Origin: an uncultured Bacteroidota bacterium
Lineage (GTDB): Bacteria; Bacteroidota; Bacteroidia; UKL13-3
Assembly (NCBI GenBank): GCA_903927505.1
Contig: CAIYNF010000114.1
Coordinates: 1,152-65,151, forward strand
DNA: 64,000 nucleotides
Reading direction: 5' to 3'
The notes under the pieces were generated by a model. That model was not told where the DNA came from and did no database searches. It saw nothing but the letters and a program-made list of their open reading frames with translations. The translations under genes and the position numbers were made by a program. Shown here one piece after another: positions 2,889 to 62,887 of this stretch. Each line of letters opens with the position of its first letter. Position 1 is the first letter of the stretch.

Positions 2889-5051
2889 GTGAAAATTACA
2901 CACATTAACAAACGCATCTTACTGATTTGCATTACTTTAATTGCAAACCTAAGTTCTTTTGCCCAAAACTATTTTGACCCGAACCAATTACAAAATCCAA
3001 AAAAATACGGGCCAAGCATTAAAGCCAAATTTAAAGAGAAATTTGTTTATGAATACAAAGTTACACCCGGCAAACATGTGGTGTTTCTTAAAAATGGCTT
3101 GCGCAGCTCAGATTTTATTGCTCCTAAACTTTGGACAAATATTCAAGATACGGTTTTCCCCTACCGGGTAGATATTGTTTATTCGCGCTACCCCTTGCAC
3201 GATAGTATTTACAAAGAAATCTATCCCTTGCTTTGCAATAGACTCCTTCATTTGTTTCAATTAGATGCCAGCTTAAACGATCCAAATTTTACATGGAACA
3301 CCATCCTACAAACACATATTGATAACGACGATCAGGTAAATACCCTTTTCCATGGAGTTGTTATTTGGTATAGAACAGCCGAAGAAGAAGCTTTGTTAAT
3401 TGATTCATTAGAAGAAAAAACGCAAGACAATGTTTCGGTTCGAACCGACAAAAATACACAAGGAGGAATCAAAGATTTAACAGAAACTATTGAAGGTATA
3501 AAGCAATCTAACTTGTTAGATGAGCAAACCAGAACTGCCATTCAAAACAAACCGCTTGATGTGCAAAAACAATTAATTAAAGAGCAGCTTCAAAAAGAAA
3601 TTATTAAACCTTCTACCATCAAATTGTCTGAAAGAACACCTTTAGAAATGTTTCAATTTAAAAGGCAGGTAACAGAATTTTTAAAGAATAATCCATTTAC
3701 AGACAGCGTTGTTTGGAAGGTAATGGACAGGCATCCAGAATGGGCAGATGCCTTGGTGGTAAACGATTGGACAGGCAGTATGTATGGGTATGGCGCACAA
3801 GTGGTACATTGGCATTTATTAAATTACAAAACATCTGGCATTAGATTTATTAGCCTATTTAATGATGGCGATAACAAAACAAATGCAAATAAAATAATTG
3901 GCGAAACAGGCGGCATTTATTCTGCAGAAGCATCAGACATTCCAAAAATAATTAACCTATTTAATTTAGTGCGACTCAATGGCGGCGGAGGCGATAGACA
4001 AGAAAACAATGTTGAAGCCATTTTAGAATCCATTAAAAGATTTCCCAATCAACAAGAAATAATATTAATAGCAGATAATTTTGCATGTATTAGAGATATA
4101 GAATTGGCAGTTAAAATTAACAAGCCTGTGCGCATCATTGTCTGTGGCTACAGCAAAGAATTTGGCGTAAATCCACACCTCGCCTACCTTGCAAAGATTA
4201 CCAATGGCGGCCTTTATACCTTAGAGCAAGACCTGGAAAATTTACGCTTAGAAACTTCGGGAATTGGTGAAATAAAAGAATTCAAAGACAGGCGTTTTTT
4301 AATAAGTCCAATCAATTGTTCTCCACGCCCTATTTATGAATTAAAATATGGAAAAGAATCTTTTAAAACCTATACCAATTACGATTCTGCTTTCATTGAA
4401 AAAGACAAGGTAAGGCAATTGGAATTAAAAGAAATGGATTTGCTTAAATGGCCTGTTGGAATAAGTAAAATGAGAAATTTATTGACCTTAAACCTTAGCA
4501 AAAACAAACTAAAATCAATTCCAAATAATGTAAAACAACTCGAATTGCTAAAGGACATAAACCTTGCTAACAATGAATTAACAGCTCTTCCCAAGACATT
4601 TACCAAATTAACAAGTCTAGAAAATTTAGATATTAGCTTTAATCAATTACAAACATTAAGTCTCTTTTTTTCCAATTGGTTTTACCTAAAAAAACTCAAT
4701 GCATCCAATAATTTATTAGCAGGCATAGATGGATTAAATCAATTGAAAAACATTCAATATTTGAATTTAAGTTTTAACAATATTGCAGAACTCCCTGCAG
4801 AAATTCATCAGTTAAAAAGATTGGTAAGTTTAGATTTGAGTAACAATAAACTCCTTTATTTACCAAGAACCATAAGCGGCTTAAGTAAAATAGAAGAGCT
4901 TAATTTAGAAAACAATAATATTGGCTCATTGCCCCCGTATCTTTATAGGTTACGCAAATTAAAAACGCTCAATCTGGCAGGTAATCCGCTTGGCGAGAAA
5001 GAAAAAGATAGAATAAGAGCAGAACTTCCTCAGGTAGAAATTACCTTTTAA
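2889..5051 (+). CDS. Secreted vWA-like domain / leucine-rich-repeat fusion protein
   Basis: The ORF is open from 2853 (GTG). A GTG at 2889 gives a classic signal peptide, (M)KITHINKRILLICITLIANLSSFAQ. The central region has a MIDAS-like DWTGSM with ..LIADNFA.. (about 3750-4180). The C-terminal part (about 4430-5000) holds about nine 23-residue LxxLxLxxNxL repeats. The start codon is uncertain. Confidence 0.7.
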   Translation: MKITHINKRILLICITLIANLSSFAQNYFDPNQLQNPKKYGPSIKAKFKEKFVYEYKVTPGKHVVFLKNGLRSSDFIAPKLWTNIQDTVFPYRVDIVYSRYPLHDSIYKEIYPLLCNRLLHLFQLDASLNDPNFTWNTILQTHIDNDDQVNTLFHGVVIWYRTAEEEALLIDSLEEKTQDNVSVRTDKNTQGGIKDLTETIEGIKQSNLLDEQTRTAIQNKPLDVQKQLIKEQLQKEIIKPSTIKLSERTPLEMFQFKRQVTEFLKNNPFTDSVVWKVMDRHPEWADALVVNDWTGSMYGYGAQVVHWHLLNYKTSGIRFISLFNDGDNKTNANKIIGETGGIYSAEASDIPKIINLFNLVRLNGGGGDRQENNVEAILESIKRFPNQQEIILIADNFACIRDIELAVKINKPVRIIVCGYSKEFGVNPHLAYLAKITNGGLYTLEQDLENLRLETSGIGEIKEFKDRRFLISPINCSPRPIYELKYGKESFKTYTNYDSAFIEKDKVRQLELKEMDLLKWPVGISKMRNLLTLNLSKNKLKSIPNNVKQLELLKDINLANNELTALPKTFTKLTSLENLDISFNQLQTLSLFFSNWFYLKKLNASNNLLAGIDGLNQLKNIQYLNLSFNNIAELPAEIHQLKRLVSLDLSNNKLLYLPRTISGLSKIEELNLENNNIGSLPPYLYRLRKLKTLNLAGNPLGEKEKDRIRAELPQVEITF
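3437..3446. repeat. GGTTCGAACC iterated palindrome, copy 1 (inside the vWA-LRR CDS; read V-R-T)
   Basis: Exact 10-mer read from the sequence. Flanks give TTTCGGTTCGAACCG. Confidence 0.9.
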
Positions 5052-5058
5052 CCGTTTC

Positions 5059-5068
5059 GGTTCGAACC
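5059..5068. repeat. GGTTCGAACC iterated palindrome, copy 2 (16-nt spacer between two convergent genes)
   Basis: Exact 10-mer, preceded by TTTC. The last base is also the first base of the SPFH gene stop-codon complement. Confidence 0.9.
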
Positions 5069-5967
5069 TATTTTGCGTCGAGTATAAGCGGTGAATTTCC
5101 CCTGCCCATAACAATAACTTTGCTATTAGGAGACTTCGCCAATTCTAAATTTGCCTTAATGGTTTCGTATTGCAATTGTTTATCTGTAAGTCCACTACTA
5201 ATAATACGTTGGTAATCGGCAATACCTTGTGCTTCTACCCTTTTACGTTCTGCTTCTTGTTTTTCTTTCTGCAAAACAAACTGCATTTTTTGCGCATCTT
5301 GTTCTGCATTAATTTTAGATTCAATACTTGCTTTTACAGATACAGGTAAGGTTATATTACGAACCAACATTTGCTCCAAAATAATTCCACGTTCTTTAAA
5401 ACTCTTTTCAATTGTTTTAAAGATTCTGTTTTGAAATTCATCACGCTTAGAAGAATACAATGCCACCGCTTCATAATACACGGCATTGTCGCGAATAGCT
5501 GTACGCGTTATAGGACGAACAATTTTTACATTATAATCCAATCCCGTTTCATTTAATATTTTAGGGGCATCTGCTGGAACAACTTTAAAAAGCACGGTTA
5601 AATCAATAGCAACTTCCAAACCATCAGCCGTAAGAATACGAATAGCATCATCACCCTCTTTATCTCCTTCATCATGAATGCCACTCATGGTATAATTTTG
5701 GGTTTTCACATCCATTTCTTTTACATCTACCAGCGGATTTATAAAATGCAAACCACTTGGCAATACATCATTTTGAACTTGTCCAAATAATACCTTTACG
5801 CCTACAAATCCAGCATCAATTTGTTTGAAACAAGAGGTGGAAACACCCAATACCAATAACACAATTCCAAAAACACGAATTCCTGCACCCACTTTTTTTG
5901 TGATTTCGTTTGCCGGCATAAAAAATGCAACAGCAAGAACAATTAGACCTAAAGTAATAAATATCAT
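5068..5967 (-). CDS. SPFH/band 7 (prohibitin-like) membrane protein
   Basis: 299 aa. One N-terminal TM helix, an SPFH core (..GVKVLFGQV..GLHFINPL..), then an E/K/Q-rich coiled-coil tail. Confidence 0.8.
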   Translation of the reverse strand: MIFITLGLIVLAVAFFMPANEITKKVGAGIRVFGIVLLVLGVSTSCFKQIDAGFVGVKVLFGQVQNDVLPSGLHFINPLVDVKEMDVKTQNYTMSGIHDEGDKEGDDAIRILTADGLEVAIDLTVLFKVVPADAPKILNETGLDYNVKIVRPITRTAIRDNAVYYEAVALYSSKRDEFQNRIFKTIEKSFKERGIILEQMLVRNITLPVSVKASIESKINAEQDAQKMQFVLQKEKQEAERKRVEAQGIADYQRIISSGLTDKQLQYETIKANLELAKSPNSKVIVMGRGNSPLILDAK

Positions 5968-6227
5968 TGTCTTAAAATTATTTGTATTTATAAATTATAA
6001 AAAACAAAGATACATTTTAGCTAGCGCAAGCAGCCAAATATTAAAAGGCCTAAATAATATTTTAAGCAATCCAATTATACATTCAAATGAAAACGCCTAG
6101 CCACACTACCCTAACAATCATTAGATAGCGTAATCCACAATTAATTTAGAAGAATCTAAGAAAAATTCAATAAAACTACTTGATAATTAACGCTTACTTA
6201 ATAAATTGTAGGTATAAAACACACGAC

Positions 6228-6476
6228 ATGGAAAATACAAACCCCACACTTTTAGAAGCAACAAGCGAGATGGAACTGGAGCAGGTTGATAGTCGGAAAA
6301 TACGCACCCAAAGGGGCTTTACACTAATTGGCTTTGGCGCTATTATTTTAATAATTGGCTGCATCTTAAGCATTATTGCAGATCCCAGTCACCTTATATA
6401 TGATTTCATTTTATACGGACCAACAACTTTAGGCGCTATAATGGTAATTTATGGCATGTACAAAGTGATGGAATAA
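6228..6476 (+). CDS. Small hypothetical membrane protein (two predicted TM helices)
   Basis: ATG at 6228 (MENTNPTLLE..). Two hydrophobic stretches, GFTLIGFGAIILIIGCILSII and ILYGPTTLGAIMVIYGM. I recognise no family. Confidence 0.4.
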   Translation: MENTNPTLLEATSEMELEQVDSRKIRTQRGFTLIGFGAIILIIGCILSIIADPSHLIYDFILYGPTTLGAIMVIYGMYKVME

Positions 6477-6665
6477 TATTAAAAAAAAATAAAATTACTT
6501 AAAACACAGTATTATAAAGAGTTACATTAAAAATGAAACTCTTTTTTAGTGTCTATTTTTATATATTTTCCACAATTTGTAGTATTTTTTCTTTTTTTTG
6601 TATAGTTTTGTTTCGGTTATTAATGAATGGAGATTCATTTGACCACAACCTAACCTTTACTCAAA

Positions 6666-7367
6666 ATGAAAAAATTATTAACTTTAGCAATTACTTGTTT
6701 ATTACTAGCAGGTACAAATTTTGTTCAATCCCAAACACGTCATAATCCTTGGGCCTTAACTGGTATGATAGGAATTACTGAGTATAGCGGAGATATGGGC
6801 AATGGTTTCTTTAAATTTGATTTAAAGCCAACCAGTTTCTACGATTTAGATGGTAATTTAAGACAAAAAAATGAACCTGGGGTTGCCGGTGCAAGCTTAA
6901 CCCGCTACATCAGTCCTAAACTAAATGTTTCACTTTCTTATTTGCATGGAGAATGGGGATTCCATACCCAAGACAACAGTTCTTATTTCTTTAAAAGAAT
7001 GAATTCTGTTGACGTACATTTTCAATGGAAGTTTTTGGGATTATATGATGATCCAATTATCAATCCTTTTATTATTGCTGGTATTGGATACCGTAACATT
7101 CATATGAAAGATAGTTTAACCAGTGGTTTGCAAAACGAAATTACCCTTCCATTAGGTTTGGGTTTAAACTTTAGATTAACAAAAGGAATGTATATCACGG
7201 CTCAATCCTATTTTGCATTCACTTCCGCTGATGCTGGCGATGGAAGAAGTATAGATTTCAACGACAAAATATGGAACCATACCATAGGCTTGAGTATTAT
7301 ACCAAACAATTTAAAGCTTGGTTTATTTACACACGCTAAAAGATACAGATGCCCTCATATTAGATAA
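6666..7367 (+). CDS. Outer-membrane beta-barrel (porin-family/OMP_b-brl-like) protein
   Basis: 233 aa. Signal peptide MKKLLTLAITCLLLAGTNFVQS, alternating beta-strand pattern with aromatic girdle residues. Followed by a terminator. Confidence 0.55.
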   Translation: MKKLLTLAITCLLLAGTNFVQSQTRHNPWALTGMIGITEYSGDMGNGFFKFDLKPTSFYDLDGNLRQKNEPGVAGASLTRYISPKLNVSLSYLHGEWGFHTQDNSSYFFKRMNSVDVHFQWKFLGLYDDPIINPFIIAGIGYRNIHMKDSLTSGLQNEITLPLGLGLNFRLTKGMYITAQSYFAFTSADAGDGRSIDFNDKIWNHTIGLSIIPNNLKLGLFTHAKRYRCPHIR

Positions 7368-7422: not shown

Positions 7423-7580
7423 GTGTCTAAGCTACTGGCAAGGTATAAATAAGAAGACACAAAAAACATTGCAGGCAACTATTTAACCACTTATTTAAGT
7501 ATTGTTCTACCTAAGTCAATTATACATAATTAACAAAGGATTAGGATATAAATAAGCCATTAAAGTACAATTGGCTTTAT

Positions 7581-7635
7581 TGGAGGCACATGGATTCGAA
7601 CCAAGGTGTCTGAATCAGCTGAGCTATTTGATAAA
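7581..7635 (-). pseudogene. Decayed tRNA-Val copy lacking the anticodon arm
   Basis: 7582..7606 is identical over 25 nt to the acceptor-3'/T-arm of the adjacent tRNA-Val (7679..7703). The D-arm region matches with one mismatch. About 24 nt covering the variable and anticodon arms are missing, the 5' acceptor strand has diverged and there is no CCA. Confidence 0.6.
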
Positions 7636-7644
7636 TTTTGGGCA

Positions 7645-7674
7645 TAAAAAAAGCCACCGAGTTATCGGTGGCTT
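7645..7674 (-). terminator. Rho-independent terminator directly after tRNA-Val
   Basis: GCCACCGA-GTTA-TCGGTGGC perfect 8-bp stem, with T7 on the minus strand. Confidence 0.7.
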
Positions 7675-7752
7675 TGGTGGAGGCACATGGATTCGAACCA
7701 AGGACCCTCTGCTTGTAAGGCAGATGCTCTGAACCAGCTGAGCTATGCCTCC
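7675..7752 (-). tRNA. tRNA-Val (anticodon UAC), CCA encoded
   Basis: The reverse complement folds by hand: acceptor GGAGGCA/TGCCTCC, D stem GCTC/GAGC, anticodon stem TCTGC/GCAGA with loop CTTACAA, T loop TTCGAAT. There is one T-T mismatch in the T stem. Confidence 0.9.
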
Positions 7753-8001: not shown

Positions 8002-8838
8002 TTAGTACTCCCAAAGGTCATGTTCTTTCTCAAACAATTCGTTTTTAACACGCTCTCCTTCTAAGATAGCGGCAACTCCATTGTCTTTAAATTCTGCATA
8101 ATCTTTAATATACATATCTTGTTGATTGGCCTCTTTAACCACATAACTGTTGAACAACCTTTGCTCAAACCAATCGTCGTAGGTTAAACGCGCTGCATCA
8201 TTTTGGCGATTGAATATCTCAAAGTTAATTAAGAAATGACGCAAATCAATCCCATCCTTTGAGTGGTATTTAAACACACACAAATCTGCCTCACCTAAAT
8301 CTACACCACCTAAACGCATGTTATAGCGAGGTGAAATAGATACGATACGCACATACATTTGAGAATGTTTTTTATCGAAAATCCAATCTTCCACAATTCT
8401 GAATTTTTGAATACGCAATTCAGGAATCATTGCATTAATGATGGTATCCGTTTCAGTAAATGTAGGATCATTTGGATCAATTGGAACGTCTACATATTCT
8501 GTATCTGTACCTTGGCTCATAAATTTCTCAATAGACATTTGTGATGTCAATGAGTCGTTTTCATAAGGCACTAATTTACCATCTCTAACAGCATTATAAA
8601 GAATAATGCTCAATGGGTTTTTAGGCCAAGCCATAGATTGATTAACCTTCTCACGTGTATCAACGATACGTACTACCCTTTTGGCGTACATTACATCTGC
8701 CTCACGTAAATAAGGCCAAGCAATAACTTTGCGTTCTGTAACTGCCTGGCGGTTGTATATAAAATCATCATATACACCTTGGGCAAAATTGCTATACGAT
8801 AGCAACAGAAGAACAATGATACCAATTGATTTTTTCAT
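8002..8838 (-). CDS. gldN: Gliding motility / T9SS protein GldN (PorN)
   Basis: 278 aa. Signal peptide, then ..WPYLREADVMYAKRVVRIVDTREKVN.., the conserved GldN N-terminal signature. Last gene of the array. Confidence 0.85.
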   Translation of the reverse strand: MKKSIGIIVLLLLSYSNFAQGVYDDFIYNRQAVTERKVIAWPYLREADVMYAKRVVRIVDTREKVNQSMAWPKNPLSIILYNAVRDGKLVPYENDSLTSQMSIEKFMSQGTDTEYVDVPIDPNDPTFTETDTIINAMIPELRIQKFRIVEDWIFDKKHSQMYVRIVSISPRYNMRLGGVDLGEADLCVFKYHSKDGIDLRHFLINFEIFNRQNDAARLTYDDWFEQRLFNSYVVKEANQQDMYIKDYAEFKDNGVAAILEGERVKNELFEKEHDLWEY

Positions 8839-8854
8839 TTTCCTAAGATTCTAA

Positions 8855-10387
8855 TTATTGTCTAACCTCTAATACAAGAGATGAAGGGATAGGCACAGGA
8901 CCCGCAGGACCTTTAGCTTTTATATTCATCAAGATGATACGATCTCCTGGACGGGCATTCATCAAAATTGATTTAGCACCACCAGTTAATTGCTCACCAC
9001 TACCTTGTTCAACTCTAGCACCACCATTTTTGGGTGCATACACTAAATTCCAGCTAATTGGCGTGAACTTCACACCTTCAAAAGCGAAATCTTTCAATGC
9101 AGTTAATACGAAATTTACTGCTTTTAATTGTCCCATTGAAACAGAACCTGATTGCTCAATTGGTCCTAACATTGGAGTAGGCTTAGGTACTTGACGAACG
9201 CGGTAAGTTGCAAATCCCATCGTTTTTCCTTCAACCGAAGCTGAAATTTTAACTTCACGGATCGAACCATCAACGGTTAACAAATATTCACCACCACTTC
9301 CAACTTTTCTTAAATTACCTCCAGAACAAGTTACATCTACTTTGTTAGCAGAGAAACCTGGTACTGACACTGAAATTGGGTTTTCTAAACCAATATAAAC
9401 TACGTTCATTTTGGTTGCAGAAATTACAGCTAAAGGAGCCAAGGCAAAGAAAGAACCTTCTTTTTCATAGGTTTCTTTTTTACCGCTTGAATTGGTTGTA
9501 GTAATAACTGCTTTGAATTTGTTTTCACCTTCTCTACTTGCAGTCACTTCATATTTACCAATTCCACTTTCGCTCTTTAATGCACTACCATTTACTGAGA
9601 TACTCGCTTCAGATCTAGAACTAGATGCAGCTAAAAAGATTTCAGCTTGGTATTTGTTACCAATGGTAATGTTAGTTCCATTTACAGGGATAATTTGAGG
9701 AGTTAACTGGTCAATGATCATTACATTTTCTGTTAATGAACCTCTGAAATAATCCAATACTTGTGATTCAGTGTTTTTGATGTCATTTTGTGTTTTTGAC
9801 AACAAAGCAACTACCGCAGCAAGAGGAGTATGTTCAAACATTTCTGCCTCCCAAGTTTCTTTAGAATCTTTAGGATCTTCAGTACGCAAATCACTTTTAA
9901 TTAATTCTTGCTTTTCTTTAGGCATTAATCCTAATAAAGCATTTCTAATTGCATTGATTTTATCTTTTACTTCTTTACCTTTTCCTTGGTTAATCATTAA
10001 ATTAGCGTGTAATTCAATGTTACTTGGTTGAGCAACCTCTTCTTCAGGGTTACCATCCTTGCGACCATCAGCATTTTTAATCAATAATTCCTTTAATTCA
10101 GTAAAATATTTAACGCCATCATCAGCGATTTTTTTTGCTTCAATTGATTTATTGTATGCAAGTGTTCCTGTTGGGTCGGCAGGGATATCAGTGTGATACC
10201 TAGCTATAGCAGCAAGTGTATTGACATTCTTCTTATCAATATTTTCACCCGCACGATCCATACTTACTTCTACCATGTGGAAGGACTTCAAGATTTCAGC
10301 AGATACGTTTAGCGCTAACAATGCTGTTAACACCAAATACATCATGTTGATCATCTTCTGCCTTACAGATACTTTACCTCCAGCCAT
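8855..10387 (-). CDS. gldM: Gliding motility / T9SS protein GldM (PorM)
   Basis: 510 aa. Canonical start MAGGKVSVRQKMINMMYLVLTALLALNVS (single TM helix) and a long periplasmic region. Confidence 0.9.
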   Translation of the reverse strand: MAGGKVSVRQKMINMMYLVLTALLALNVSAEILKSFHMVEVSMDRAGENIDKKNVNTLAAIARYHTDIPADPTGTLAYNKSIEAKKIADDGVKYFTELKELLIKNADGRKDGNPEEEVAQPSNIELHANLMINQGKGKEVKDKINAIRNALLGLMPKEKQELIKSDLRTEDPKDSKETWEAEMFEHTPLAAVVALLSKTQNDIKNTESQVLDYFRGSLTENVMIIDQLTPQIIPVNGTNITIGNKYQAEIFLAASSSRSEASISVNGSALKSESGIGKYEVTASREGENKFKAVITTTNSSGKKETYEKEGSFFALAPLAVISATKMNVVYIGLENPISVSVPGFSANKVDVTCSGGNLRKVGSGGEYLLTVDGSIREVKISASVEGKTMGFATYRVRQVPKPTPMLGPIEQSGSVSMGQLKAVNFVLTALKDFAFEGVKFTPISWNLVYAPKNGGARVEQGSGEQLTGGAKSILMNARPGDRIILMNIKAKGPAGPVPIPSSLVLEVRQ

Positions 10388-10420
10388 TTGTTATAATATT
10401 GTATTTTCTAAAACTAAGAA

Positions 10421-11215
10421 TTAATTACCACGAACATTCATTGCAGCTAACATGTTACCATATACGCTATTCAATGATGATAGATTTTTGTTTAATTTAT
10501 CCATTTCACCTTTGAAGTGTTCTGCATTGGCGTTGGTATCATTTAATGTGCTAACAACTTTAGATAAGCCACCAACAAATTCGTTGATTCCTTTTAAGTG
10601 GTTATTAGATTCAGCAATTTCTAATTCATAAATTGAATTCAATGAAGCCAAGTTCTTGGTCATTTTTTCAATTTGAGCACCATATTCACGTGAACCTTCA
10701 GATGCATTTACCAGACCTTCCATTGCTGTAACGGCTTTGGTATAAGATGTATTGATTCCAGTTAAAGAATCAGCAGCAGCTTGAACATTTTTAGTGTAAG
10801 TGTCAGTTGCAACTGCAGCTGTTGAAAGATCTTTCATGCTGCTTACGTTTTCGGTTAAGGTACGCATACCATTACCTAAACTATTAATCAAATCTGGACC
10901 AATTTTAGCTTCTTCCATCATTTTATCTAATTGTTGCGTGATGGTACCTTTATTTGAAGATTTTTTATCTTTAGGTTCCATACCAGCTAATTCAGGATAA
11001 ACCAATGTCCAATCTGGTTCTTGGTGAGGTGGTTCAAATGCAGAAACAAAGAAAATAGCAGCTTCAGTTAACAAACCAACCATCAACATTAAATCTGCAC
11101 CCTTCCAATGGAGGATTTTAAAAAGAGCTCCAATAATTACCACTGCTGCACCAATACCATAAGCTTTGGCCATGAAAGACTTGAAGCCTTTACTTTCTAA
11201 AAAACTGTTTTTCAT
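10421..11215 (-). CDS. gldL: Gliding motility / T9SS protein GldL (PorL)
   Basis: 264 aa. Two N-terminal TM helices (..GAAVVIIGALFKILHWKG..LMVGLLTEAAIFFVSAFEP) and a helical cytoplasmic tail. Confidence 0.9.
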   Translation of the reverse strand: MKNSFLESKGFKSFMAKAYGIGAAVVIIGALFKILHWKGADLMLMVGLLTEAAIFFVSAFEPPHQEPDWTLVYPELAGMEPKDKKSSNKGTITQQLDKMMEEAKIGPDLINSLGNGMRTLTENVSSMKDLSTAAVATDTYTKNVQAAADSLTGINTSYTKAVTAMEGLVNASEGSREYGAQIEKMTKNLASLNSIYELEIAESNNHLKGINEFVGGLSKVVSTLNDTNANAEHFKGEMDKLNKNLSSLNSVYGNMLAAMNVRGN

Positions 11216-11269
11216 TTGATTAATAATTTAAATTAGTTGATTGTTTGATTGATTGAATATTTTTTGTGA

Positions 11270-12562
11270 TTACTTTTTGTCTCTGTTTGAACGGCCAACA
11301 TAGCTTTGAACTAAACGAAAACCTGTGTAAGAATTTGCACTATCTTGGTATTCATATGAACGGCTACCATTTTGAATATAATGTGCAATATCTTTCCAAG
11401 AACCGCCTCTGATAACTTTACGTTTCAAAGTTTCTGAATCTTCTTCTTTTGCGTCGTATTGGTAATCTGAATTTAAATCATGTGTAAATAAGTGACCAGA
11501 TTCTGCATAAGCTGTTACAGTCCACTCTGCTACGTTACCACTCATGTCATACAAGCCAAAATCATTAGGGAAATAAGACGCAACACGAATTGGGTAAACA
11601 CCACCATCTGCGCCATAATCGCCACGACCAGGTTTGAAGTTGGCCAATGAACAACCTTTAGCGTTTCTTACATAAGGACCACCCCAAGGGTACATTGTTT
11701 GATCTCTACCTGAACGAGCTGCATATTCCCACTCATATTCGGTTGGCAAACGGAAAGCGGTTACGCCATTTTCGCCATTTTCAGCATAGAATGCATTTAA
11801 GTGGAAAGTTCTCCAATGTGCAAATGCACGTGCTTGTTTCCAATTTACACCAACTACAGGATAGTCGTCATATTTTGGATGCCAATAGTACATAGTAGCG
11901 ATAGGCTCATTATAAGCGTAAGTAAAATCACGCATAAATACCAATGTATCAGGATATATTTCTACAGTCTCTTCACGTTTAAAATCGGCACGGTTTTTCT
12001 TATAAGCATCTTGCTTATGCAATTGAGCCGCTGCACGCAAATCAATATAATCGTATTTGTACTTCAATTTACGCACATCAATTTGCTTGGTGCGGTAGTA
12101 AATTTCATTACCTTGGTAATACATGTCATTGATTTCACCATTTTTCATGTCTTCTGGTTCCATACGCATCTTATAATTGATGGCATGCTCTCCAGTTTCT
12201 TCCTCAGTGATCGGATCAATCAATGGAATCCAATATTTATCTCCCAATTTTTCACGGAAGATTGAGTCCATCACATCATCAACAAATTGACGGTACTCAT
12301 TATTGGTGATTTCGGTTTCATCCATGTAGAAAGCCGTAATGGTGATTTGCTTATTGGGCGCAATCATTGCATTAGGGATGTCTTGCTCATTGGCTCCTAC
12401 GTGTATTGTTCCTGAAGGAATATACACTGTACCATAAGGCTGTGGGTGAAACCAGGCACTTCTACCTTGAATTCCCGTTAATTCTCCTTTGTCGCTGCTC
12501 AAACCACAACCAGTTAAGGTTAGGGCTAAAGAGAAGAAGAAAAACCATTTTAATTGCTTCAT
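11270..12562 (-). CDS. gldK: Gliding motility / T9SS lipoprotein GldK (PorK), FGE-sulfatase fold
   Basis: 430 aa. Lipobox LTLTGCG. SUMF1/FGE-like motifs (..YPVVGVNW..A.AFAHW, MSGNVAEW, RGGSW, GFRLV). Confidence 0.9.
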   Translation of the reverse strand: MKQLKWFFFFSLALTLTGCGLSSDKGELTGIQGRSAWFHPQPYGTVYIPSGTIHVGANEQDIPNAMIAPNKQITITAFYMDETEITNNEYRQFVDDVMDSIFREKLGDKYWIPLIDPITEEETGEHAINYKMRMEPEDMKNGEINDMYYQGNEIYYRTKQIDVRKLKYKYDYIDLRAAAQLHKQDAYKKNRADFKREETVEIYPDTLVFMRDFTYAYNEPIATMYYWHPKYDDYPVVGVNWKQARAFAHWRTFHLNAFYAENGENGVTAFRLPTEYEWEYAARSGRDQTMYPWGGPYVRNAKGCSLANFKPGRGDYGADGGVYPIRVASYFPNDFGLYDMSGNVAEWTVTAYAESGHLFTHDLNSDYQYDAKEEDSETLKRKVIRGGSWKDIAHYIQNGSRSYEYQDSANSYTGFRLVQSYVGRSNRDKK

Positions 12563-12672
12563 CGTATGTAAACTATTAATGACTGTAATGTGGCAAAATT
12601 ATTAATTCGAACTAATAATACAAGTAAAACTTAATTTAATTTGTAAAGATAACGTTAGGTATTGTCTATTTA

Positions 12673-13674
12673 TTACATGAATCGTGGTGTATATCTTGAT
12701 CTTAACACCGGAACTCTTTTCGGAATTGTGACACCAAAGCAGTAACGAAGCATGATTTCATGCGATCCAGAACTGTATTTTATGATGCGAGAAGTGGTTA
12801 AATCATAACTATACCCAACATTTAGGCCAAATGGGAACTGGTAACCTACAAGTAAAACAGCGGCATCCATAGGGCGCCATGTTAAACCTCCTCTTAAATT
12901 TTCGTTCCAAACCAAAAAGCAATTTAAATCTGCCTGAATTTTAGCTGGATCCTTTTTAACAATAAGATTTGGCTGCAATTTCATGGTAGCATTTAACTGG
13001 TATTCACCTCCTGTTACAAAATACATGTGCATCTTGCTGTCTATAATGGTTCGGTTCGGACCAAACTCATAGGTAATTTGGTTTTGATTTAAGTGTGTGG
13101 CAGAAGCACCAGCATAGAAATTATCTAAAATACCAAACAAATTATCTTTTGTGTAATATAAACCAAAATCTACATCTAATGCACTTCCACTTACTGCTAT
13201 ATTAGGGATTTTTGGGTCGTTAGGATCTAAAGCTTTCAATTTGGTGCCATCCAATGTGCGTTGCATATAACCAACACCTACACCTGCTGCTAACACTCCT
13301 CCATCACCAAGCGGATGACGGTAAGATAAGGTTAAACGAGGCATGGTCATTGTTTCAAAACCTAATTCATCACTTACAATGGTTCCACCAATTCCAAAAC
13401 GTTTGCCTAATGCAACATTGATGCTACCCACCAAATTTACTGGGGCTTTGCCTTGTGCTAAACCGTTAACAGTTTGCCCTCCAAAACCCATCCATTGTGT
13501 ACGATGTAGCAAGGTTGCACAGATTTTACCATCTGTTGCACCAGCAAAACCAGCATTGTAAGCCAATTTATTATACATAAACTGACTGTAGTGCGGATCT
13601 TGTTGCGCCTTTATTTCATTGGCACTAACAAGAATTGCTATCCCTAAAAAAACACGTGTAAAGATTGACCTCAT
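12673..13674 (-). CDS. porP: PorP/SprF family T9SS outer-membrane protein
   Basis: 333 aa. Signal peptide then QQDPHYSQFMYNKLAYNAGFAG, the family signature. Lies immediately upstream of gldK, as in the porP-porKLMN arrangement. Confidence 0.85.
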   Translation of the reverse strand: MRSIFTRVFLGIAILVSANEIKAQQDPHYSQFMYNKLAYNAGFAGATDGKICATLLHRTQWMGFGGQTVNGLAQGKAPVNLVGSINVALGKRFGIGGTIVSDELGFETMTMPRLTLSYRHPLGDGGVLAAGVGVGYMQRTLDGTKLKALDPNDPKIPNIAVSGSALDVDFGLYYTKDNLFGILDNFYAGASATHLNQNQITYEFGPNRTIIDSKMHMYFVTGGEYQLNATMKLQPNLIVKKDPAKIQADLNCFLVWNENLRGGLTWRPMDAAVLLVGYQFPFGLNVGYSYDLTTSRIIKYSSGSHEIMLRYCFGVTIPKRVPVLRSRYTPRFM

Positions 13675-15496: not shown

Positions 15497-17266
15497 TTAA
15501 AAAAAGCTAACAAACCCAAAATGAATTTTCGCACTTTGCACCTCAAGTGAATTTCCTTTTTGACTTCCCATTGCATAATACAAGGAAAATATCCCTGCCC
15601 CAGTTTCAATGTTCATCCCCGCTCCTATTCCCCAGGGTTTATCTGTTACCTGCGGATTATTCACCTCATTTTTATAATAAGCGCCATTCCAAAACACTAA
15701 AAAACTTGAATTTTGTTGAAACAGGTATCTCAATTCTAGGTTTGCAATGATAAACTTATTTGCAAAAATACTTTGTTCATCGAAACCCTTAAGCGTTTTT
15801 AATCCACCAATGCGGAAAAGTTCGTTCAAAAACAGGTTTTCATTTGCTATTATAGCTCCTTTGGCTTGTGTGAGTAATACAAAATGAGAGGCTACTTTTG
15901 TAAACAACATTAAATTACCCTGGCACTTATATTGTAAACTCATTAATTTAACCGAATCATAAATGGCGTATTTATTTCCATTGTTAAGGAGTGCTACTTC
16001 AGAAATACTGGCGTTTTTCACTATTTGTTTTGTACCGGCGCCTGCTTCTAATTCTATTAAATAACCCTTTTGAGGATTAAAAAAATAATCCAATGTAGCT
16101 TTTCGAATGGCCAATCCATAAATATTATTTTTAACATCATTTACCAATGGTAATTTTTTATTTAATGCAACAAAATGGGTGTCGGGATTGAGCACCTGAA
16201 CGGATTGCAATTGCAAGTAAATTTTAATGTAATTATTTCCTGTAAACCTATATTGAAGACCAATATCATTGTATAATTCGAGCCAAGTAGTATCAAACTT
16301 CATGAGTTTAAAAGCATAATCTATTCCCAATTTTGAATTTAGAAAATAGGGCCAATTCATTTTTAGTTGTAAATCTTGGCTATTGTTTAAAAAGCCACGG
16401 TAAGCCAATTCAAAGTTTTTTCCCGAGCCTAAGATATTTACTAATTTTAGGTTTAAATCACCCGTTAAAACTAATTTATTATTGATGCTGCTATTTGGTG
16501 CAAACCCAATAACACCATCAAAACTAGAGGCTTTGCGCTTATTGATGTATACATAAGGTTTTGCCTTATTCCCATAAAAGTATACCCCTAAAGGTTGCGC
16601 AACTTGTAGGTATGCCAATTCGCTTAATCTGGCGTCTAAATTCTTTAGTAACTCTTCTTGGTAGGGTGCACCAGGTTTGATATTGGCGTAATTTTGCAAA
16701 AAGATTTTTTGAATATTTGCAGTACCCCCAAAATCAATGCTGTCAAAAAACACCAATTGGTTCTTCTGCAAATTGATTGCTGCACGCATACCATTTGAAT
16801 CTGCTTCAAGGCTATCGAGTGTGACAGTTGCAAAAGGAAAACCGTTGTTTTCGGCATGAATGATTAATTGGTTTAGTGCAATAAAAAGTTGTTTGGGATT
16901 TATTAAATTAGGCTTATTGGAAACAAAATTAAAATTGGCAATATGCTGCCATTCTTGGGGAACATTCCCCATTCTTAATTCCTTTAATTCAAAAGCAGGC
17001 CCGGTTCGAACCGAAATAAATACGGTATCATTTTGCCAAATTTCATTTTGTATAAAAGCACTTAAGAAGGCAGATTGGTAGCATTTGAGCAGGATTTCAT
17101 TGTTATTTCTTTTAACAAATAAACTATCCCCTTTGAATGAATTGTTGAGCTGTTTTTCAAGCAGGAGGTTTTTGGGTTCGACCCGACAAATTGGGGTATA
17201 CAGCTTTTGGGCCTGCGCAAAAATTGCTAGTCCGAACAAAACAAATATGAGGCTGTATCTTTTCAA
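15497..17266 (-). CDS. Omp85/BamA-TamA family outer-membrane protein
   Basis: 589 aa. Signal peptide MKRYSLIFVLFGLAIFAQA, a POTRA-like N-terminal part, and a C-terminal barrel ending ..IHFGFVSFF. Confidence 0.6.
   Translation of the reverse strand: MKRYSLIFVLFGLAIFAQAQKLYTPICRVEPKNLLLEKQLNNSFKGDSLFVKRNNNEILLKCYQSAFLSAFIQNEIWQNDTVFISVRTGPAFELKELRMGNVPQEWQHIANFNFVSNKPNLINPKQLFIALNQLIIHAENNGFPFATVTLDSLEADSNGMRAAINLQKNQLVFFDSIDFGGTANIQKIFLQNYANIKPGAPYQEELLKNLDARLSELAYLQVAQPLGVYFYGNKAKPYVYINKRKASSFDGVIGFAPNSSINNKLVLTGDLNLKLVNILGSGKNFELAYRGFLNNSQDLQLKMNWPYFLNSKLGIDYAFKLMKFDTTWLELYNDIGLQYRFTGNNYIKIYLQLQSVQVLNPDTHFVALNKKLPLVNDVKNNIYGLAIRKATLDYFFNPQKGYLIELEAGAGTKQIVKNASISEVALLNNGNKYAIYDSVKLMSLQYKCQGNLMLFTKVASHFVLLTQAKGAIIANENLFLNELFRIGGLKTLKGFDEQSIFANKFIIANLELRYLFQQNSSFLVFWNGAYYKNEVNNPQVTDKPWGIGAGMNIETGAGIFSLYYAMGSQKGNSLEVQSAKIHFGFVSFF
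17003..17012. repeat. GGTTCGAACC iterated palindrome, copy 3 (inside the Omp85-like CDS; read V-R-T)
   Basis: Exact 10-mer. The 12-mer CGGTTCGAACCG is complete, and GGTTCGAACCGAAA is the reverse complement of the shared 14-mer. Confidence 0.9.
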
Positions 17267-19353: not shown

Positions 19354-19354
19354 G

Positions 19355-20407: not shown

Positions 20408-20414
20408 ATACTAA

Positions 20415-21647: not shown

Positions 21648-21943
21648 ACGGCCTTTGCCTTCTCAACAAACTTAAAACCTTTTCTTCCATTTTGTTCCTG
21701 GAAATCTATGAGCATGCCCGCAAAAAAGAAAATCTGACCGGCATTATAAATTACTTCAATTCCATCCACTTCCAAAGACCTGTCTTTTTCTGTTTTTGCA
21801 TCGAAGCCTATTAACAAACCTTTGTCTTGCGAATTTTTCTGACGGATTCCAACGCGTAAAAAATAATCTTCAGGAATTTGAAGGGTTTGTTGGTAATGTG
21901 CAATGGCCTCTTTGGCGGCTGTTGTAAACTCAATCATTTGCAT
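21644..21943 (-). CDS. HesB/IscA-like domain protein with no cysteines
   Basis: 99 aa. The pattern ..LRVGI..GLLIGFD..EVDGIEVIY..AGMLIDF..KGFKF parallels the IscA fold, but the sequence contains no Cys. Overlaps the permease start by 4 nt. Confidence 0.45.
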   Translation of the reverse strand: MQMIEFTTAAKEAIAHYQQTLQIPEDYFLRVGIRQKNSQDKGLLIGFDAKTEKDRSLEVDGIEVIYNAGQIFFFAGMLIDFQEQNGRKGFKFVEKAKAV

Positions 21944-22073
21944 AGGGCTGCAAGTTAATCAATAGGATTGGAATTGCCTATTTCCCAAAAGGATTGATTT
22001 ACATTTGAGGCTTCGAAAAAATAAAATTGGGAGAATACTTGGGCGAATCCTTATTTTTCAAGAAAAATTACAC

Positions 22074-49102: not shown

Positions 49103-51793
49103 ATGGTAATGGCCAATATGCGTAAATTTATTGTAATTGTAATTTTGTTCCTGAGTGGCATCACTTCATTGTATGCTACACATTACAGAGCGGGCGAAAT
49201 TACCTATAAACAAATTTCTGGCTATACTTATGAGGTAACTGTTTTTACTTATACCGACCCAGGGAATATAGCTGCAGACCGACAAGAAATTGAGGTATTT
49301 TTTGGTGATGGGAAATCTGAAATTGTACCACGTGCAAATGGCAATGGACAAATTGTAAATCCGGATATTAACAATACGATAAAAATGAATATTTATCGTA
49401 CCACCCATACCTATCCTGGTCCTTATAGTTACCTCATTAATATTGTAGACCAAAACCGTGTAGACAATATCAAAAACATTAACAATGGAAACAGTGTGAG
49501 CATTCCTATTTATATTGAATGCCTACTTATAGTAAAACCAGCCATAGGAAACAACCAATCCCCTGTATTGTTAATGCCTCCCATAGATGTAGGCTGTGTA
49601 AACAAAACATTTACGCATAACCCTTCGGCTTACGACCCTGATGGAGATAGTTTGGTTTTTAGCATCATTGCCCCAAAAATGTCGATGGGAATTGAAGTGC
49701 CCAGCTTTACCATACCTGCACATTCCAATTCTTTTAGTATTGAATTAAATACTGGTCAGCTTACATGGGATAAACCAACCCAGGCAGGGCATTATAATTG
49801 GGCCATCTTAATTCAAGAATTTAGAGGTGGCAAAATGATTGGATTTGTAGTGAGGGATATGCAAGTATATATTTATAATAATTGCGATAATTCTCCTCCC
49901 TTATTGACATCTCACAACGACACTTGTGTGGAGGCAAATAAATTGTTACAGGGTACTATTTTCGCCACAGATCCTAATCCTGGTCAGACCATTAAACTTC
50001 AATATTTTGGAGGGCCATTTGTGCAAATGAATAGTCCTGCAAAAATGACCCCTGCCAATCCAGAGGGACCGTATACAGGAGTTACAGGAATTTTCAGATG
50101 GAGTCCAAGTTGCAATGCCATTAGGTATACACCTCATATGGCTGTATTTAAAGCCATGGACAACCACAATACTAATCCATTATTTGATATTAATTATTGG
50201 AATATAAAGGTGGTAGGCCCAGCGCCGCAAAATTTGAGCATTGTAAAAGACAGCAATGGTTTTAAAATTAATTGGGACAGGGACACTTGTAGAATTGCAT
50301 TAGGATATAAAATATATCGCAGAATTGATTCCAGTTATTGGCAGCATGGCGCTTGCGAAACAGGAGTTCCAGCTTATACAGGATATGTTTTATTTGATAC
50401 CACCAAAGGCGTCAATAATGCTAAGTATTTCGACAATAATAATGGCAGGGGAATATCACCTCTTACGAGGTATTGTTACATGATAACCAGTTGGTATTAT
50501 CCAAGAAATGAAGATGGAACTGTAATTTTAATTGGCGAAAAAACGGAAAGTTATGCCAGCAAAGAAGTGTGTGCTATTATTTTGCGCACCCAACCCATTA
50601 TCACCAAAGTTAGTGTAGAGAAAACAGCTGGTGCAGATGGTAAAATTCAAGTAGAATGGATTAAGCCAAACATCTTAGATTCGAACCAATTTAAACCACC
50701 CTATAAATTTCAATTACAAAGGTCGAACCAAGCAAATGGAATTTTTTCAAATGCGGGTGCACCATACATTTTTAGCTCCTTTGCACAATTATTGGATGCT
50801 GCCTACTTAGATAGTTCTCTTAACACTTTAGACCAAAGCTATTATTACAAGGTATTATTTTATTGTACCAATAATGGCAATGATGAATTAATTGAGGAAA
50901 GTAATGTTGCAGGATCTGTTCGTTTGGCGCTTGGAAGCACCGATAATTCATTGCTATTAAGTTGGAAGGCAGATGTACCTTGGATTAATAAAGAAAGTGT
51001 AATTTACAAAAAGAACACAAGCAACACTTTTGATTCTATAGGCATTTCAAGCAATATGCAGTTTATAGATACTGGCTTGGTAAATGGACAGCGTTATTGT
51101 TATTTTGTAGAAACAAAGGGCAATTATAACCAACAGTATTACCCCTTATTGTTGCGCAATAAATCACAAGAAATTTGCGGTATACCAAAGGATACCATCA
51201 GACCCTGCGCACCTACTTTTACAATAGATACGCCTTGCAATTCTTTCAATATTTTAGAGGTGAAATTAAATTGGACCTATCCAACAAGTTGCAACCAAGA
51301 TGTTGTGAAGTATCGCATTTATTGGCGTAAAAATTCAAGTGAAATTTGGAAAATAGTAGACAGTGTTGTTTTCGGTTCGAACCAATACATAGATAAAAGG
51401 GAGCAATTAAAATTTTCAATTGCTGGATGTTATGCCGTTGCAGCGGTTGATTCCTTTAATAACCAAAGTTATTTAACCAATGCCAAATGTATTGACAATT
51501 GTCCGTTCTACAGCATTCCAACTGTTTTTACACCCAATGCAGATGGCAAAAACGATTTACTGAATCCATTTCCATATAGATTTATTGACAAGGTAGATAT
51601 TAGTATTTTTAACCGTTGGGGCCAGGAAGTATTTCACACCAACGACTTGGATATTAATTGGAATGGAACCGATCAAAAAAGCGCTGCAGAATTAAGTGAG
51701 GGTGTTTATTTTTATATAGCCGAAGTGAGTGAAAGTTATTTAGATGGAACTAAAAAACGCGTGCTAAGAGGTACAATTAATATAATCAGATAA
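49103..51793 (+). CDS. Large secreted protein with a T9SS type B (gliding motility-associated, CHU_C-like) C-terminal domain
   Basis: 896 aa. Signal peptide (MRKFIVIVILFLSGITSLYA, possibly starting at 49118). C-terminal ..IPTVFTPNADGKNDLLNPF..ISIFNRWGQEVFH..WNGTDQ..GVYFYIAEV... Confidence 0.75.
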   Translation: MVMANMRKFIVIVILFLSGITSLYATHYRAGEITYKQISGYTYEVTVFTYTDPGNIAADRQEIEVFFGDGKSEIVPRANGNGQIVNPDINNTIKMNIYRTTHTYPGPYSYLINIVDQNRVDNIKNINNGNSVSIPIYIECLLIVKPAIGNNQSPVLLMPPIDVGCVNKTFTHNPSAYDPDGDSLVFSIIAPKMSMGIEVPSFTIPAHSNSFSIELNTGQLTWDKPTQAGHYNWAILIQEFRGGKMIGFVVRDMQVYIYNNCDNSPPLLTSHNDTCVEANKLLQGTIFATDPNPGQTIKLQYFGGPFVQMNSPAKMTPANPEGPYTGVTGIFRWSPSCNAIRYTPHMAVFKAMDNHNTNPLFDINYWNIKVVGPAPQNLSIVKDSNGFKINWDRDTCRIALGYKIYRRIDSSYWQHGACETGVPAYTGYVLFDTTKGVNNAKYFDNNNGRGISPLTRYCYMITSWYYPRNEDGTVILIGEKTESYASKEVCAIILRTQPIITKVSVEKTAGADGKIQVEWIKPNILDSNQFKPPYKFQLQRSNQANGIFSNAGAPYIFSSFAQLLDAAYLDSSLNTLDQSYYYKVLFYCTNNGNDELIEESNVAGSVRLALGSTDNSLLLSWKADVPWINKESVIYKKNTSNTFDSIGISSNMQFIDTGLVNGQRYCYFVETKGNYNQQYYPLLLRNKSQEICGIPKDTIRPCAPTFTIDTPCNSFNILEVKLNWTYPTSCNQDVVKYRIYWRKNSSEIWKIVDSVVFGSNQYIDKREQLKFSIAGCYAVAAVDSFNNQSYLTNAKCIDNCPFYSIPTVFTPNADGKNDLLNPFPYRFIDKVDISIFNRWGQEVFHTNDLDINWNGTDQKSAAELSEGVYFYIAEVSESYLDGTKKRVLRGTINIIR
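51374..51383. repeat. GGTTCGAACC iterated palindrome, copy 6 (inside the type B cargo CDS; read G-S-N)
   Basis: Exact 10-mer, preceded by TTTC. Codons are ttc ggt tcg aac caa. Confidence 0.9.
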
Positions 51794-62283: not shown

Positions 62284-62344
62284 TGTCTTTTTATTTGATA
62301 GATTCAATTTTACAATTTACATTCCAAAAATAAAATCTTTTGAA

Positions 62345-62869
62345 ATGTATTGGTCAAAGCTACACAAAAACAAACAAAATTTCCTTATTTTACTGACTTT
62401 ATTGGGTTTTAGCTGCTGCAAAATGGAAACAAATTACTCGCTCACCAAAATTGGAAGTGACCAAATATTAAACGGAAGTGTCCAAAAAGAAGTACTTATG
62501 GATGCAAAATTATTCCCATGGTTTAATTATGAATACAGGATATACAAGCCAGACACAAGTATTCTTACTAATTTGAAATTAAAATCTAAAAACATCCATG
62601 CGCTGGTATTTGCCGGCTCTTGGTGTTCTGATACCCAAAGAGAATTACCAAGGTTTTATAAAATCATGGATTTAGCGGGGATTGAAGCCAAGCAAATGGA
62701 TTGTATCATGTTGGATCAAAATAAAAAATGTGCGTATATGAATGTAGAGTCGATACAAATTAGCCATATTCCCACGTTTATCTTTTACAAAGATGGCAAG
62801 GAATGCGGACGGATTATTGAAAAGGCAGATTCAAGTATAGAATTGTCCATTCAATCCTTTTACAAATAG
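62345..62869 (+). CDS. Thioredoxin-fold lipoprotein with a WCSDT motif in place of CxxC
   Basis: ATG at 62345: MYWSKLHKNKQNFLILLTLLGFSCC (lipobox). ..VFAGSWCSDTQRELPRF.. and ..IPTFIFYKDGKE.. indicate a thioredoxin fold. The upstream 84 codons in the ORF track are antisense to the LpoB-like gene. Confidence 0.55.
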   Translation: MYWSKLHKNKQNFLILLTLLGFSCCKMETNYSLTKIGSDQILNGSVQKEVLMDAKLFPWFNYEYRIYKPDTSILTNLKLKSKNIHALVFAGSWCSDTQRELPRFYKIMDLAGIEAKQMDCIMLDQNKKCAYMNVESIQISHIPTFIFYKDGKECGRIIEKADSSIELSIQSFYK

Positions 62870-62877
62870 CTATTTTT

Positions 62878-62887
62878 GGTTCGAACC
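62878..62887. repeat. GGTTCGAACC iterated palindrome, copy 7 (spacer between the thioredoxin-fold gene and prc)
   Basis: Exact 10-mer. The flanks form the 20-nt near-palindrome TTTTTGGTTCGAACCGAAAA. Confidence 0.9.

Follow-up and report, generated by a model that had tools for sequence, protein, structure and literature searches.

A ten-base-pair palindrome, GGTTCGAACC, recurs in a 64-kb stretch of DNA from an uncultured freshwater Bacteroidota bacterium (contig CAIYNF010000114.1 of assembly GCA_903927505.1; hereafter the window, i.e., the whole stretch of 64,000 nucleotides that was analysed). We found it to be the core of a longer, oriented word that is limited to one clade. Our best reading is that of a lineage-specific recognition word, over-represented genome-wide and weakly driven or selected, of the kind of the DNA uptake sequences (DUS), the uptake signal sequences (USS) and the highly iterated palindrome HIP1. 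The window is ordinary chromosome of a metagenome-assembled genome (MAG), with gldKLMN, porP, housekeeping genes and one tRNA-Val. The palindrome had been noticed in an earlier, sequence-only reading of the window, and we return below to the claims made there.

Over-representation of the core

The core occurs exactly seven times in the window, at 3437, 5059, 17003, 33740, 41145, 51374 and 62878, the positions at which the sequence-only reading had placed it. A census of all 10-mers of the window on both strands ranks GGTTCGAACC first, above every A/T-rich word. In 100 dinucleotide-preserving shuffles of the window it did not occur once. The same copies are present in independent assemblies (ENA, Logan, NCBI MAGs), and are therefore not an assembly artefact.

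Markov models of orders 0–3 trained on the window predict 0.015–0.026 copies per 64 kb. When copies with at most one mismatch were masked from the training data, the expectation was 0.012–0.08 for orders 0–6 (at order 7 it is 0, the needed contexts being absent from the masked data). Training on the sister and outgroup loci (668 kb) gave 0.017–0.039 for orders 0–7. The unmasked window-trained model predicts 1.7–6.7 copies at order 5 and above, i.e., an observed-to-expected ratio (O/E) near 1. This value is circular because the long sub-words stem almost solely from the motif copies themselves: GTTCGAAC, for example, occurs ten times in the window, seven of them within motif copies. We dropped these higher-order backgrounds and retained the masked and outgroup-trained expectation of at most 0.08, under which the probability of seven or more copies is about 4e-12. 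The over-representation is 100–500-fold under every non-circular background, above the minimum of 15-fold that is used for HIP-type words. The earlier estimate of about 0.02 expected copies and a several-hundred-fold excess thus holds (non-circular expectation about 0.01–0.08), and among the higher-order Markov models O/E came near 1 solely in the circular one.

Over-representation drops steeply with rising mismatch load. We counted 7 exact copies in the window where 0.013 were expected (O/E 525), 15 copies with one mismatch for 0.72 (O/E 21), 15 with two for 12.3 (O/E 1.2) and 119 with three for 120 (O/E 1.0). We counted 24 sites of the central hexamer TTCGAA where an order-3 model predicts about 15, and 16 of these 24 sites have GG on the 5' or CC on the 3' side, in agreement with the earlier approximate counts by eye. 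Two of the 16 are T-arm-like, one in tRNA-Val and one in a degenerate copy of it. TTCGAA outside the GG/CC context is not enriched in the window. Exact copies have a density of about 1 per 9–10 kb over the 64 kb, and TTGGTTCRAACCGAAA is a searchable form of the word that can be counted along contigs together with its mismatch forms.

A longer, oriented word

The full word is approximately TTGGTTC[G/A]AACCGAAA, i.e., TT-GGTTC[G/A]AACC-GAAA, or about 14–16 nucleotides. Read on the strand with G(A) 3' of the core, six of the seven window copies match TT-GGTTCGAACC-GAAA(A)C. At core position 6, many copies in relatives have A in place of G, which gives the intrinsically oriented form GGTTCAAACC. 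We used 27 such CA-type sites, de-duplicated for orthology, for flank statistics. Position −2 is T in 24 of them and position −1 a pyrimidine in 22; position +11 is always a purine (27/27), most often G (19/27), and the three positions that follow are mostly A. The flanks are not mirror images: G stands at +11 in 19 of the 27 sites, C at −1 in just six (p=0.015). The palindrome is therefore the core of an asymmetric word.

Beyond ±4 nucleotides the flanks are unrelated (mean identity 0.31, against 0.295 for random pairs). The earlier statement that copies share no longer flanking homology stands at that distance, but it overlooked a short extension that is conserved: T and Y at −2 and −1, and R at +11 ahead of an A-rich stretch. 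Clade-wide, the word is about as dense in coding as in spacer DNA, and is found in each of the three frames and in either orientation to genes. An antisense-only orientation within genes, seen in four of four cases in the window, was lost once more sites were counted.

Distribution and dialects

A GldK-based scan of the GTDB species representatives returned 64 loci, which we placed on a neighbour-joining tree of this single protein (L numbers stand for these and for the further loci named below). Over 67 related loci in all, the word, in its CG or CA/TG form, is limited to one clade. The motif clade has 58 copies outside tRNA genes in 478 kb where 0.73 are expected, the sister clade none in 132 kb, and the outgroups none in 536 kb (together 0 in 668 kb).

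The two forms are split by subclade, congruent with the single-protein phylogeny. The deep branches of the motif clade (L015, L017, L018, L014, L016, L010 and L013) have the CA form almost exclusively; L015, for example, has seven copies in 21 kb and no CG copy among them. The window's subclade, which comprises the window, L006, B1(2017) (assembly GCA_002256395.1; L005 and L292), L048 and L290, has mostly the CG form. A conservative count gives CG:CA ratios of 13:3 in this subclade and 2:18 in the rest of the clade (p=2e-5), and the two forms coexist within single genomes. Because most lineages of the clade carry GGTTCAAACC, this non-palindromic form is, by parsimony on the single-gene tree, probably the older one, and the perfect CpG palindrome probably a derived dialect of the window's subclade.

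Copies were also found away from the GldK loci. A metagenome scan with a 16-mer gave, among the matches listed, about eight loci with the tetranucleotide signature of the window (r ≥ 0.95) that overlap neither the window nor the GldK loci; the clade membership of several of them is from composition alone. They hold three further copies in 46 kb, again among the matches listed. One of the eight or so, the contig L180, has two copies in 22 kb and belongs to assembly JAWXAZ01, the same MAG as the clade member L008, a link that emerged from a protein search meant to place loci in B1(2017). L297 also comes from JAWXAZ01, so this clade genome has copies on independent contigs. A second protein search for placement in B1(2017) matched a promiscuous Fic protein and was uninformative.

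The half-word TTGGTTCRA was counted separately. It occurs 2–5 times per 10 kb in most motif-clade loci, where composition predicts about 0.2. Several sister-clade loci without the full word (L023, L024 and L027) have it in excess as well, and there it may be the evolutionary precursor of the full word. Some of the half-word copies are at orthologous coding positions.

Gain, loss and turnover of sites

Alignments of orthologous regions show that copies originate in place through point substitutions, with no indels. The copy at 17003 is present only in the window and L006; the alignment has no indel relative to L005, L010 and L013, which read ACTATTCAATTA or similar, and the gain changed the protein from TIQL to SVRT. 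We regard this copy as a recent in-place gain on the evidence of the alignment. Likewise, the copy at 6479 in L015 derives from GCACTTAATC through one Ala-to-Gly change and synonymous changes in Leu and Asn codons, and the copy at 6956 in L010 from a conserved GGnATGAAY segment. Near the N-terminus of a 589-aa protein, one site takes the CG form in L005, L006 and L013, the TG form in L010, and in the window a decayed form with one mismatch.

We judged the conservation of sites against the fraction of all 10-mers that are intact between the same two genomes. The window and B1(2017), which are about 75% identical at the nucleotide level, have no exact copy in common in either syntenic region (for L292, 0/5, i.e., 0/3 and 0/2). 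B1(2017) nonetheless has four copies in 42 kb, a density unchanged from that of the window. Closer pairs offer few sites. Conservation lies near the background between the window and L006, where 3/3 and 3/6 were kept with a background of 0.49, and between L017 and L018, with 1/3 in each direction and a background of 0.62; between the window and L290 (84% identity), 3/3 and 3/5 with a background of 0.255, which is somewhat over background. Because positions turn over while the density holds near 1 per 10 kb, these comparisons indicate that the word population is in a gain-loss steady state, with each site at most weakly constrained.

Likeness to known word systems

We compared the word with the DUS of Neisseriaceae (e.g., ATGCCGTCTGAA) and the USS of Pasteurellaceae (AAGTGCGGT with an AT-rich flank). 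Like them, it is short and oriented and has a strong core between weaker flanks, its very large over-representation is graded by mismatch load, and it lies in both orientations in genes and spacers, the genic copies being in weakly constrained residues. It also shares their origin by point mutation, their one-base lineage dialects that track the phylogeny, and their absence from remoter relatives. Unlike them, it belongs to another phylum and has another sequence, its density is about ten-fold lower (1 per 9–10 kb vs about 1 per kb), its core is palindromic or nearly so, and inverted-pair terminators were not seen. Nor are these uncultured bacteria known to have a competence phenotype, a pilin receptor or an uptake bias.

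The sequence-only reading had named HIP1 (GCGATCGC) as the closest precedent. This stands insofar as both are hyper-abundant, palindrome-centred short words with lineage variants, lie in unrelated genes and spacers, and are not mobile; the function of HIP1, long unknown, is now linked to transformation. Palindromy, on the other hand, is not supported as the defining property here: it is limited to the window's subclade, the sequence differs from GCGATCGC and the flanks are asymmetric. HIP1 is a GC-rich palindromic octamer within known methyltransferase sites, whereas here the probable ancestral form is non-palindromic, the word asymmetric and the methylation signature absent. HIP1 is reported to be 15–300-fold over-represented and its sites conserved beyond neutral expectation (Xu 2018, PMC5861425). 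In contrast, the conservation of the few sites compared here appears near neutral, and their density is about ten-fold lower than that of HIP1. In the open-access text we found no paper with this word, or with an iterated word of such kind in Bacteroidota, in line with the earlier remark that no equivalent was known from the phylum. From our comparison, the word is best described as one that works like DUS, USS or HIP1 but is a member of neither family.

What could maintain the word

The steady state has the following elements. Ordinary point substitutions create copies where they stand, and many of these changes are synonymous or fall in protein segments under weak constraint. Copies also decay and are replaced continually, which keeps the density at about 1 per 10 kb despite the turnover of positions. 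In one subclade the central base has probably changed from A to G, incidentally making the core a perfect CpG palindrome. Such a state would require a sequence-specific reader that gives word-bearing DNA a small advantage in transmission or fitness, either by molecular drive or by weak selection over many sites. In the least certain step, the reader would most likely be part of DNA uptake or homologous recombination, and the word a "self-DNA" tag like DUS, USS and, going by recent work, HIP1.

We favour a reader in uptake or recombination, tentatively and at less than even odds, because the enrichment, turnover, graded mismatches, in-place origin and one-base dialects match the reported behaviour of uptake sequences. 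The over-representation of uptake sequences is described as depending gradually and non-linearly on mismatch load (Bakkali 2007, PMC1939737), DUS dialects as distributed in line with phylogeny (Frye 2013, PMC3630211), and uptake sequences as favouring residues that are poorly conserved (Findlay & Redfield 2009, PMC2817400). In a cyanobacterium, methylated HIP1 is reported to make natural transformation more efficient (bioRxiv 10.1101/2024.09.10.611283), and HIP1 has been proposed as an uptake signal in a 2026 preprint (10.64898/2026.06.24.733823).

The sole lead to a candidate reader comes from assembly JAWXAZ01, where L297 encodes two predicted ComEA-type HHH_3 DNA-binding proteins. One has 240 aa (515–1237, minus strand). 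The other has 673 aa with an N-terminal HHH_3 domain (10001–12022, plus strand), its gene contains a copy of the motif, and some of its database homologues bear the names "ComEA family" or "predicted porin". This lead is weak because such genes are widespread.

Several points weigh against an uptake or recombination tag. We know of no reader protein and no competence phenotype for these uncultured organisms, and to our knowledge specificity for uptake sequences has not been reported in Bacteroidota; nor did we find it in the open-access literature. The two spacer copies are neither inverted pairs nor terminators, unlike many DUS. Conservation per site appears near neutral, which fits drive but fits equally any weak selection over many sites. 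The genome-wide distribution is judged from the 64 kb of the window together with two syntenic stretches of relatives and a small number of independent contigs. Finally, the density of about 1 per 9–10 kb is about ten-fold under that given for DUS, USS or HIP1 (about 1 per kb; PMC2817400).

The alternative that survives best, although we consider it unlikely, is that a chromosome-organising protein binds the word, in the way of parS and ParB, the Noc-binding site (NBS), the SlmA-binding site (SBS) and matS, or of the nucleoid role proposed for HIP1. Dispersed quasi-palindromic sites would then load, bridge or exclude factors, with selection acting on regional density rather than on exact position. 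The near-palindromic 14-mer T-Y-GGTTCRAACC-R-A would suit a dimeric helix-turn-helix protein, and parS, NBS, SBS and matS are also near-palindromic sites of about 14–16 bp that are tolerated in coding sequence; parS and NBS sites are often within genes, as here. The outer GTTTC...GAAAC resembles the outer bases of canonical parS (canonical parS itself, with up to three mismatches, is absent from the window), and gene strand and GC skew both flip sign at about 18–22 kb. The known systems, however, have tens of sites per genome that are regionally confined and positionally conserved. Here turnover is fast even between genomes of 91–94% identity and total at 75%, CG and CA forms are mixed in single genomes, and the asymmetry correlates with the central A/G base. 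The 64 kb of the window hold seven exact copies and a 20-fold enriched cloud of 15 one-mismatch copies, other copies are on separate, unlinked contigs of one MAG, and the density exceeds that of the NBS, SBS and matS systems about five-fold or more. The window contains neither a DnaA-box cluster nor parAB. A role in chromosome structure has also been argued for HIP1 (Xu 2018, PMC5861425), which speaks for this alternative.

Repair drive linked to methylation, as in Elhai's model of HIP, is less probable still. A methyltransferase for the word, or for its TTCGAA or TCGA core, together with methyl-directed or Vsr-type short-patch repair would convert near-matches, and the word would be a by-product. 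The sequence-only reading had suggested a link to methylation at TTCGAA or TCGA, and the CpG core of the window's lineage does contain the AsuII/BstBI site TTCGAA and the TaqI site TCGA. Cognate methyltransferases are reported to co-occur with HIP1 and alternate HIPs (Elhai 2015, PMC4390886), and the orthologous CG-to-TG changes are of the type expected of 5-methylcytosine deamination and repair. The sequence signatures, however, are negative. TCGA is at expectation in the window (80 observed vs 80.6), bare TTCGAA is unenriched, and both the relative abundance of CpG (0.57–0.87) and the O/E of TCGA (about 1) are equal in CG- and CA-dialect lineages. The wider and probably older form GGTTCAAACC is non-palindromic and the word asymmetric; deamination on either strand of a palindrome predicts equal orientations, whereas 19 sites vs 6 favour one. 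A CpG transition accounts for just one of the 13 one-mismatch window copies outside tRNA genes. No methyltransferase or Vsr gene lies within the window, and we know of no methyltransferase with a recognition site of 10–16 bp. General methylation pressure does not, on these signatures, appear to explain the word.

We give little credence to an action of the word in RNA or protein, as a small hairpin, terminator, processing signal or favoured peptide x-V-R-T. Four of the five genic window copies are in the V-R-T frame (p=0.045), both spacer copies are in sense orientation 0–9 nucleotides past a stop codon, and only one strand would form a G-U pair from the T...G flank. Yet clade-wide the three frames and both gene orientations are used in roughly equal numbers, which led us to reject a peptide motif S-V-R-T. 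We also rejected a hairpin, a terminator or a known RNA family, since the typical word folds weakly (−3.1 kcal/mol) and no terminator-like structure or Rfam family was found at the sites. Positions −1 and +11 do not covary beyond their marginal base frequencies.

Remnants or targets of a small mobile element (a miniature inverted-repeat transposable element (MITE), a REP-like element, a transposon footprint, or an integrase pseudo-att site from a tRNA T-arm) are already largely refuted, and we consider them the least probable of these causes: the 5' part TTGGTTCGAA exactly matches the T-arm of the adjacent tRNA-Val (TTGGTTCGAATCC), the G/A choice coincides with tRNA position 57, which is a purine, and in the unrelated contig L250 the word stands at the inner ends of long inverted repeats, but flank homology of the MITE or REP kind is absent beyond ±4 nucleotides, sites arise by substitution without insertion or frame change, in-frame copies lie in conserved genes in all three phases, and a scan of viral contigs gave single matches per stretch (weighed by judgement, not against a computed chance expectation). 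Because the flanks are unrelated and the gains involve no indels, the earlier conclusion that this is not a dispersed mobile element is upheld. What probability remains beyond uptake or recombination, an architectural protein and repair drive goes to other or unknown causes.

Hyper-abundant genomic words are rare (DUS, USS, HIP1, Chi and KOPS), and each has revealed a basic mechanism of DNA uptake, recombination or chromosome handling. Natural transformation has barely been studied in Bacteroidota, and a new example there would point to an unrecognised sequence-specific system of DNA handling in abundant lake bacteria. If the word is an uptake or recombination tag, TTGGTTC[G/A]AACCGAAA could be, although we hold this to be doubtful, the first "self-DNA" word of the uptake-signal type outside Proteobacteria and cyanobacteria, serving as a species tag in a freshwater Bacteroidota genus or family. 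Its two dialects, with central A or G, would then act as an incipient barrier to gene exchange, and its reader would be unlike the type IV pilins of Neisseria, e.g., an outer-membrane ComEA-like protein. The clear dialects and an origin that can be dated between two sister clades make for a clean comparative design, in which one looks for genes that arrive together with the word and for genes that change with the switch from A to G. Such a comparison could also help to settle the role of HIP1-type words generally. In practice, the word offers a marker for binning the clade in metagenomes and a candidate tool toward transformability.

Sites in the window

Five of the seven exact copies are in real coding sequences and two in spacers, as the sequence-only reading had it, but Pfam did not return its gene labels "vWA" and "Omp85-like". 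Genic copies were seen at the end of a signal peptide and in segments that are N-terminal or variable (an anecdotal observation).

The copy at 3437–3446 (minus strand) is in the gene of a leucine-rich repeat protein (2853–5051, plus strand), in codons S-V-R-T; it has the extension on both sides (gtttc, core, gaca) and is kept in L006 and L001. The copy at 5059–5068 (minus strand) lies in a 16-nucleotide spacer that separates two convergent genes. It reads TAG-GTTCGAACC-GAAACG on the minus strand, the TAG stop of the Band_7 gene (5068–5967, minus strand) overlapping the first G of the motif. It is kept in L006, L001, L002 and L003, and no terminator-like hairpin was found at the site. At 17003–17012 (plus strand), the core is followed by GAAATA and is in codons S-V-R-T of the gene of the 589-aa protein (15497–17266, minus strand), which has no Pfam match. 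The copy at 33740–33749 is in a MacB/FtsX permease gene (33654–34922, plus strand), in codons M-V-R-T; with the extension on neither flank, it is listed without a strand.

Three further sites were aligned with B1(2017). At 41145–41154 (minus strand), the core is at the signal-peptide end of a CarboxypepD_reg-like protein (41089–41733, plus strand) and reads TT-core-GAGTTA on the minus strand; it is kept in L290 and L291, and the aligned B1(2017) sequence is GGTTAGAATC. A CA-dialect copy, GGTTCAAACC, at 42663–42672 (plus strand) is at the 3' end of the open reading frame 41837–42676; it is also kept in L290 and L291, with GGTTTAAACC as its B1(2017) counterpart. The copy at 51374–51383 (minus strand) is in the gene of the CHU_C type IX secretion cargo (49103–51793, plus strand), in codons G-S-N-Q. 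It is the full word TTGGTTCGAACCGAAAAC on the minus strand and is kept in L290, its B1(2017) counterpart being GGAACAAATC. The full word TTGGTTCGAACCGAAAAC occurs again at 62876–62893 (plus strand, core at 62878), in a spacer 7 nucleotides past the TAG stop (62867–62869) of a thioredoxin-like gene, where the motif itself forms no terminator.

Two of the one-mismatch copies have exact counterparts in relatives. The decayed copy GGTTCGACCC at 17175–17184 is exact at the same position in L006, L005 and L013 and of the TG dialect in L010. The copy GGTTCGGACC at 13053–13062, in the PorP/SprF gene, is exact at this position in L006.

Matches in unrelated DNA

Many of the multi-copy metagenome matches, among those listed, came from high-GC soil bacteria, where they are an unrelated, conserved spacer between rplJ and rplL; most others were chance-like. 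In these soil bacteria (about 64% GC) the 16-mer TTGGTTCGAACCGAAA is a conserved spacer directly upstream of the ribosome-binding site of rplL (L245 at 5930–6660, L174, L192, L193, L216, L263, L274 and L282), and a second GGTTCGAACC lies in the rplJ leader. A scan of viral sequences with a 14-mer returned 102 stretches with one match each, which we take to be chance hits, by judgement rather than from a computed expectation.

In L250, perfect inverted repeats of 60 bp or more, 1.75 kb apart, have the core at their inner ends (1583 and 3336) and resemble an insertion sequence or an invertible segment. In L157, a low-GC viral contig, two core copies 22 nucleotides apart form a hairpin (7138–7169). 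A tandem "iteron-like" array in L230 was rejected, as it looks like low-complexity DNA of unrelated source.

Other features of the region

The palindrome CACGTG occurs 12 times in the window (e.g., at 10687, 46441, 46522 and 47125) against about three expected from an order-3 Markov model. We rejected parS as an explanation of this excess: the sites have no common flanks and do not match canonical parS. Gene orientation changes from mostly minus to mostly plus at about 18000–22000, where GC skew changes sign and its cumulative minimum lies (near 18–22 kb). The window has no DnaA-box cluster, no canonical parS (at most three mismatches), and no methyltransferase, restriction, Vsr, dnaA or parAB gene. 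A replication origin at 18–22 kb is not demonstrated, because a DnaA-box cluster, dnaA and parS are absent. An origin-proximal parS-like cluster was rejected for lack of DnaA boxes and canonical parS and because of the copies on other contigs, the skew and strand switch notwithstanding.

The window contains a full gldK-gldL-gldM-gldN cluster with porP/sprF upstream, the core of the type IX secretion system (8002–13674, minus strand). Several type IX cargo genes flank the cluster (M36 peptidase at 37210–39825, CHU_C protein at 49103–51793). The tRNA-Val gene is at 7675–7752 (minus strand), with a degenerate second copy at 7550–7650 (minus strand) that neither ARAGORN nor Rfam calls. The two share an acceptor/T-arm segment (57 nucleotides, 79% identity) and a D/anticodon segment (19 nucleotides, 95% identity), at spacings of 97 and 119 nucleotides, which implies an internal deletion of about 22 nucleotides. 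A GC-rich hairpin follows both copies, and relatives have two or three T-arm copies at this locus.

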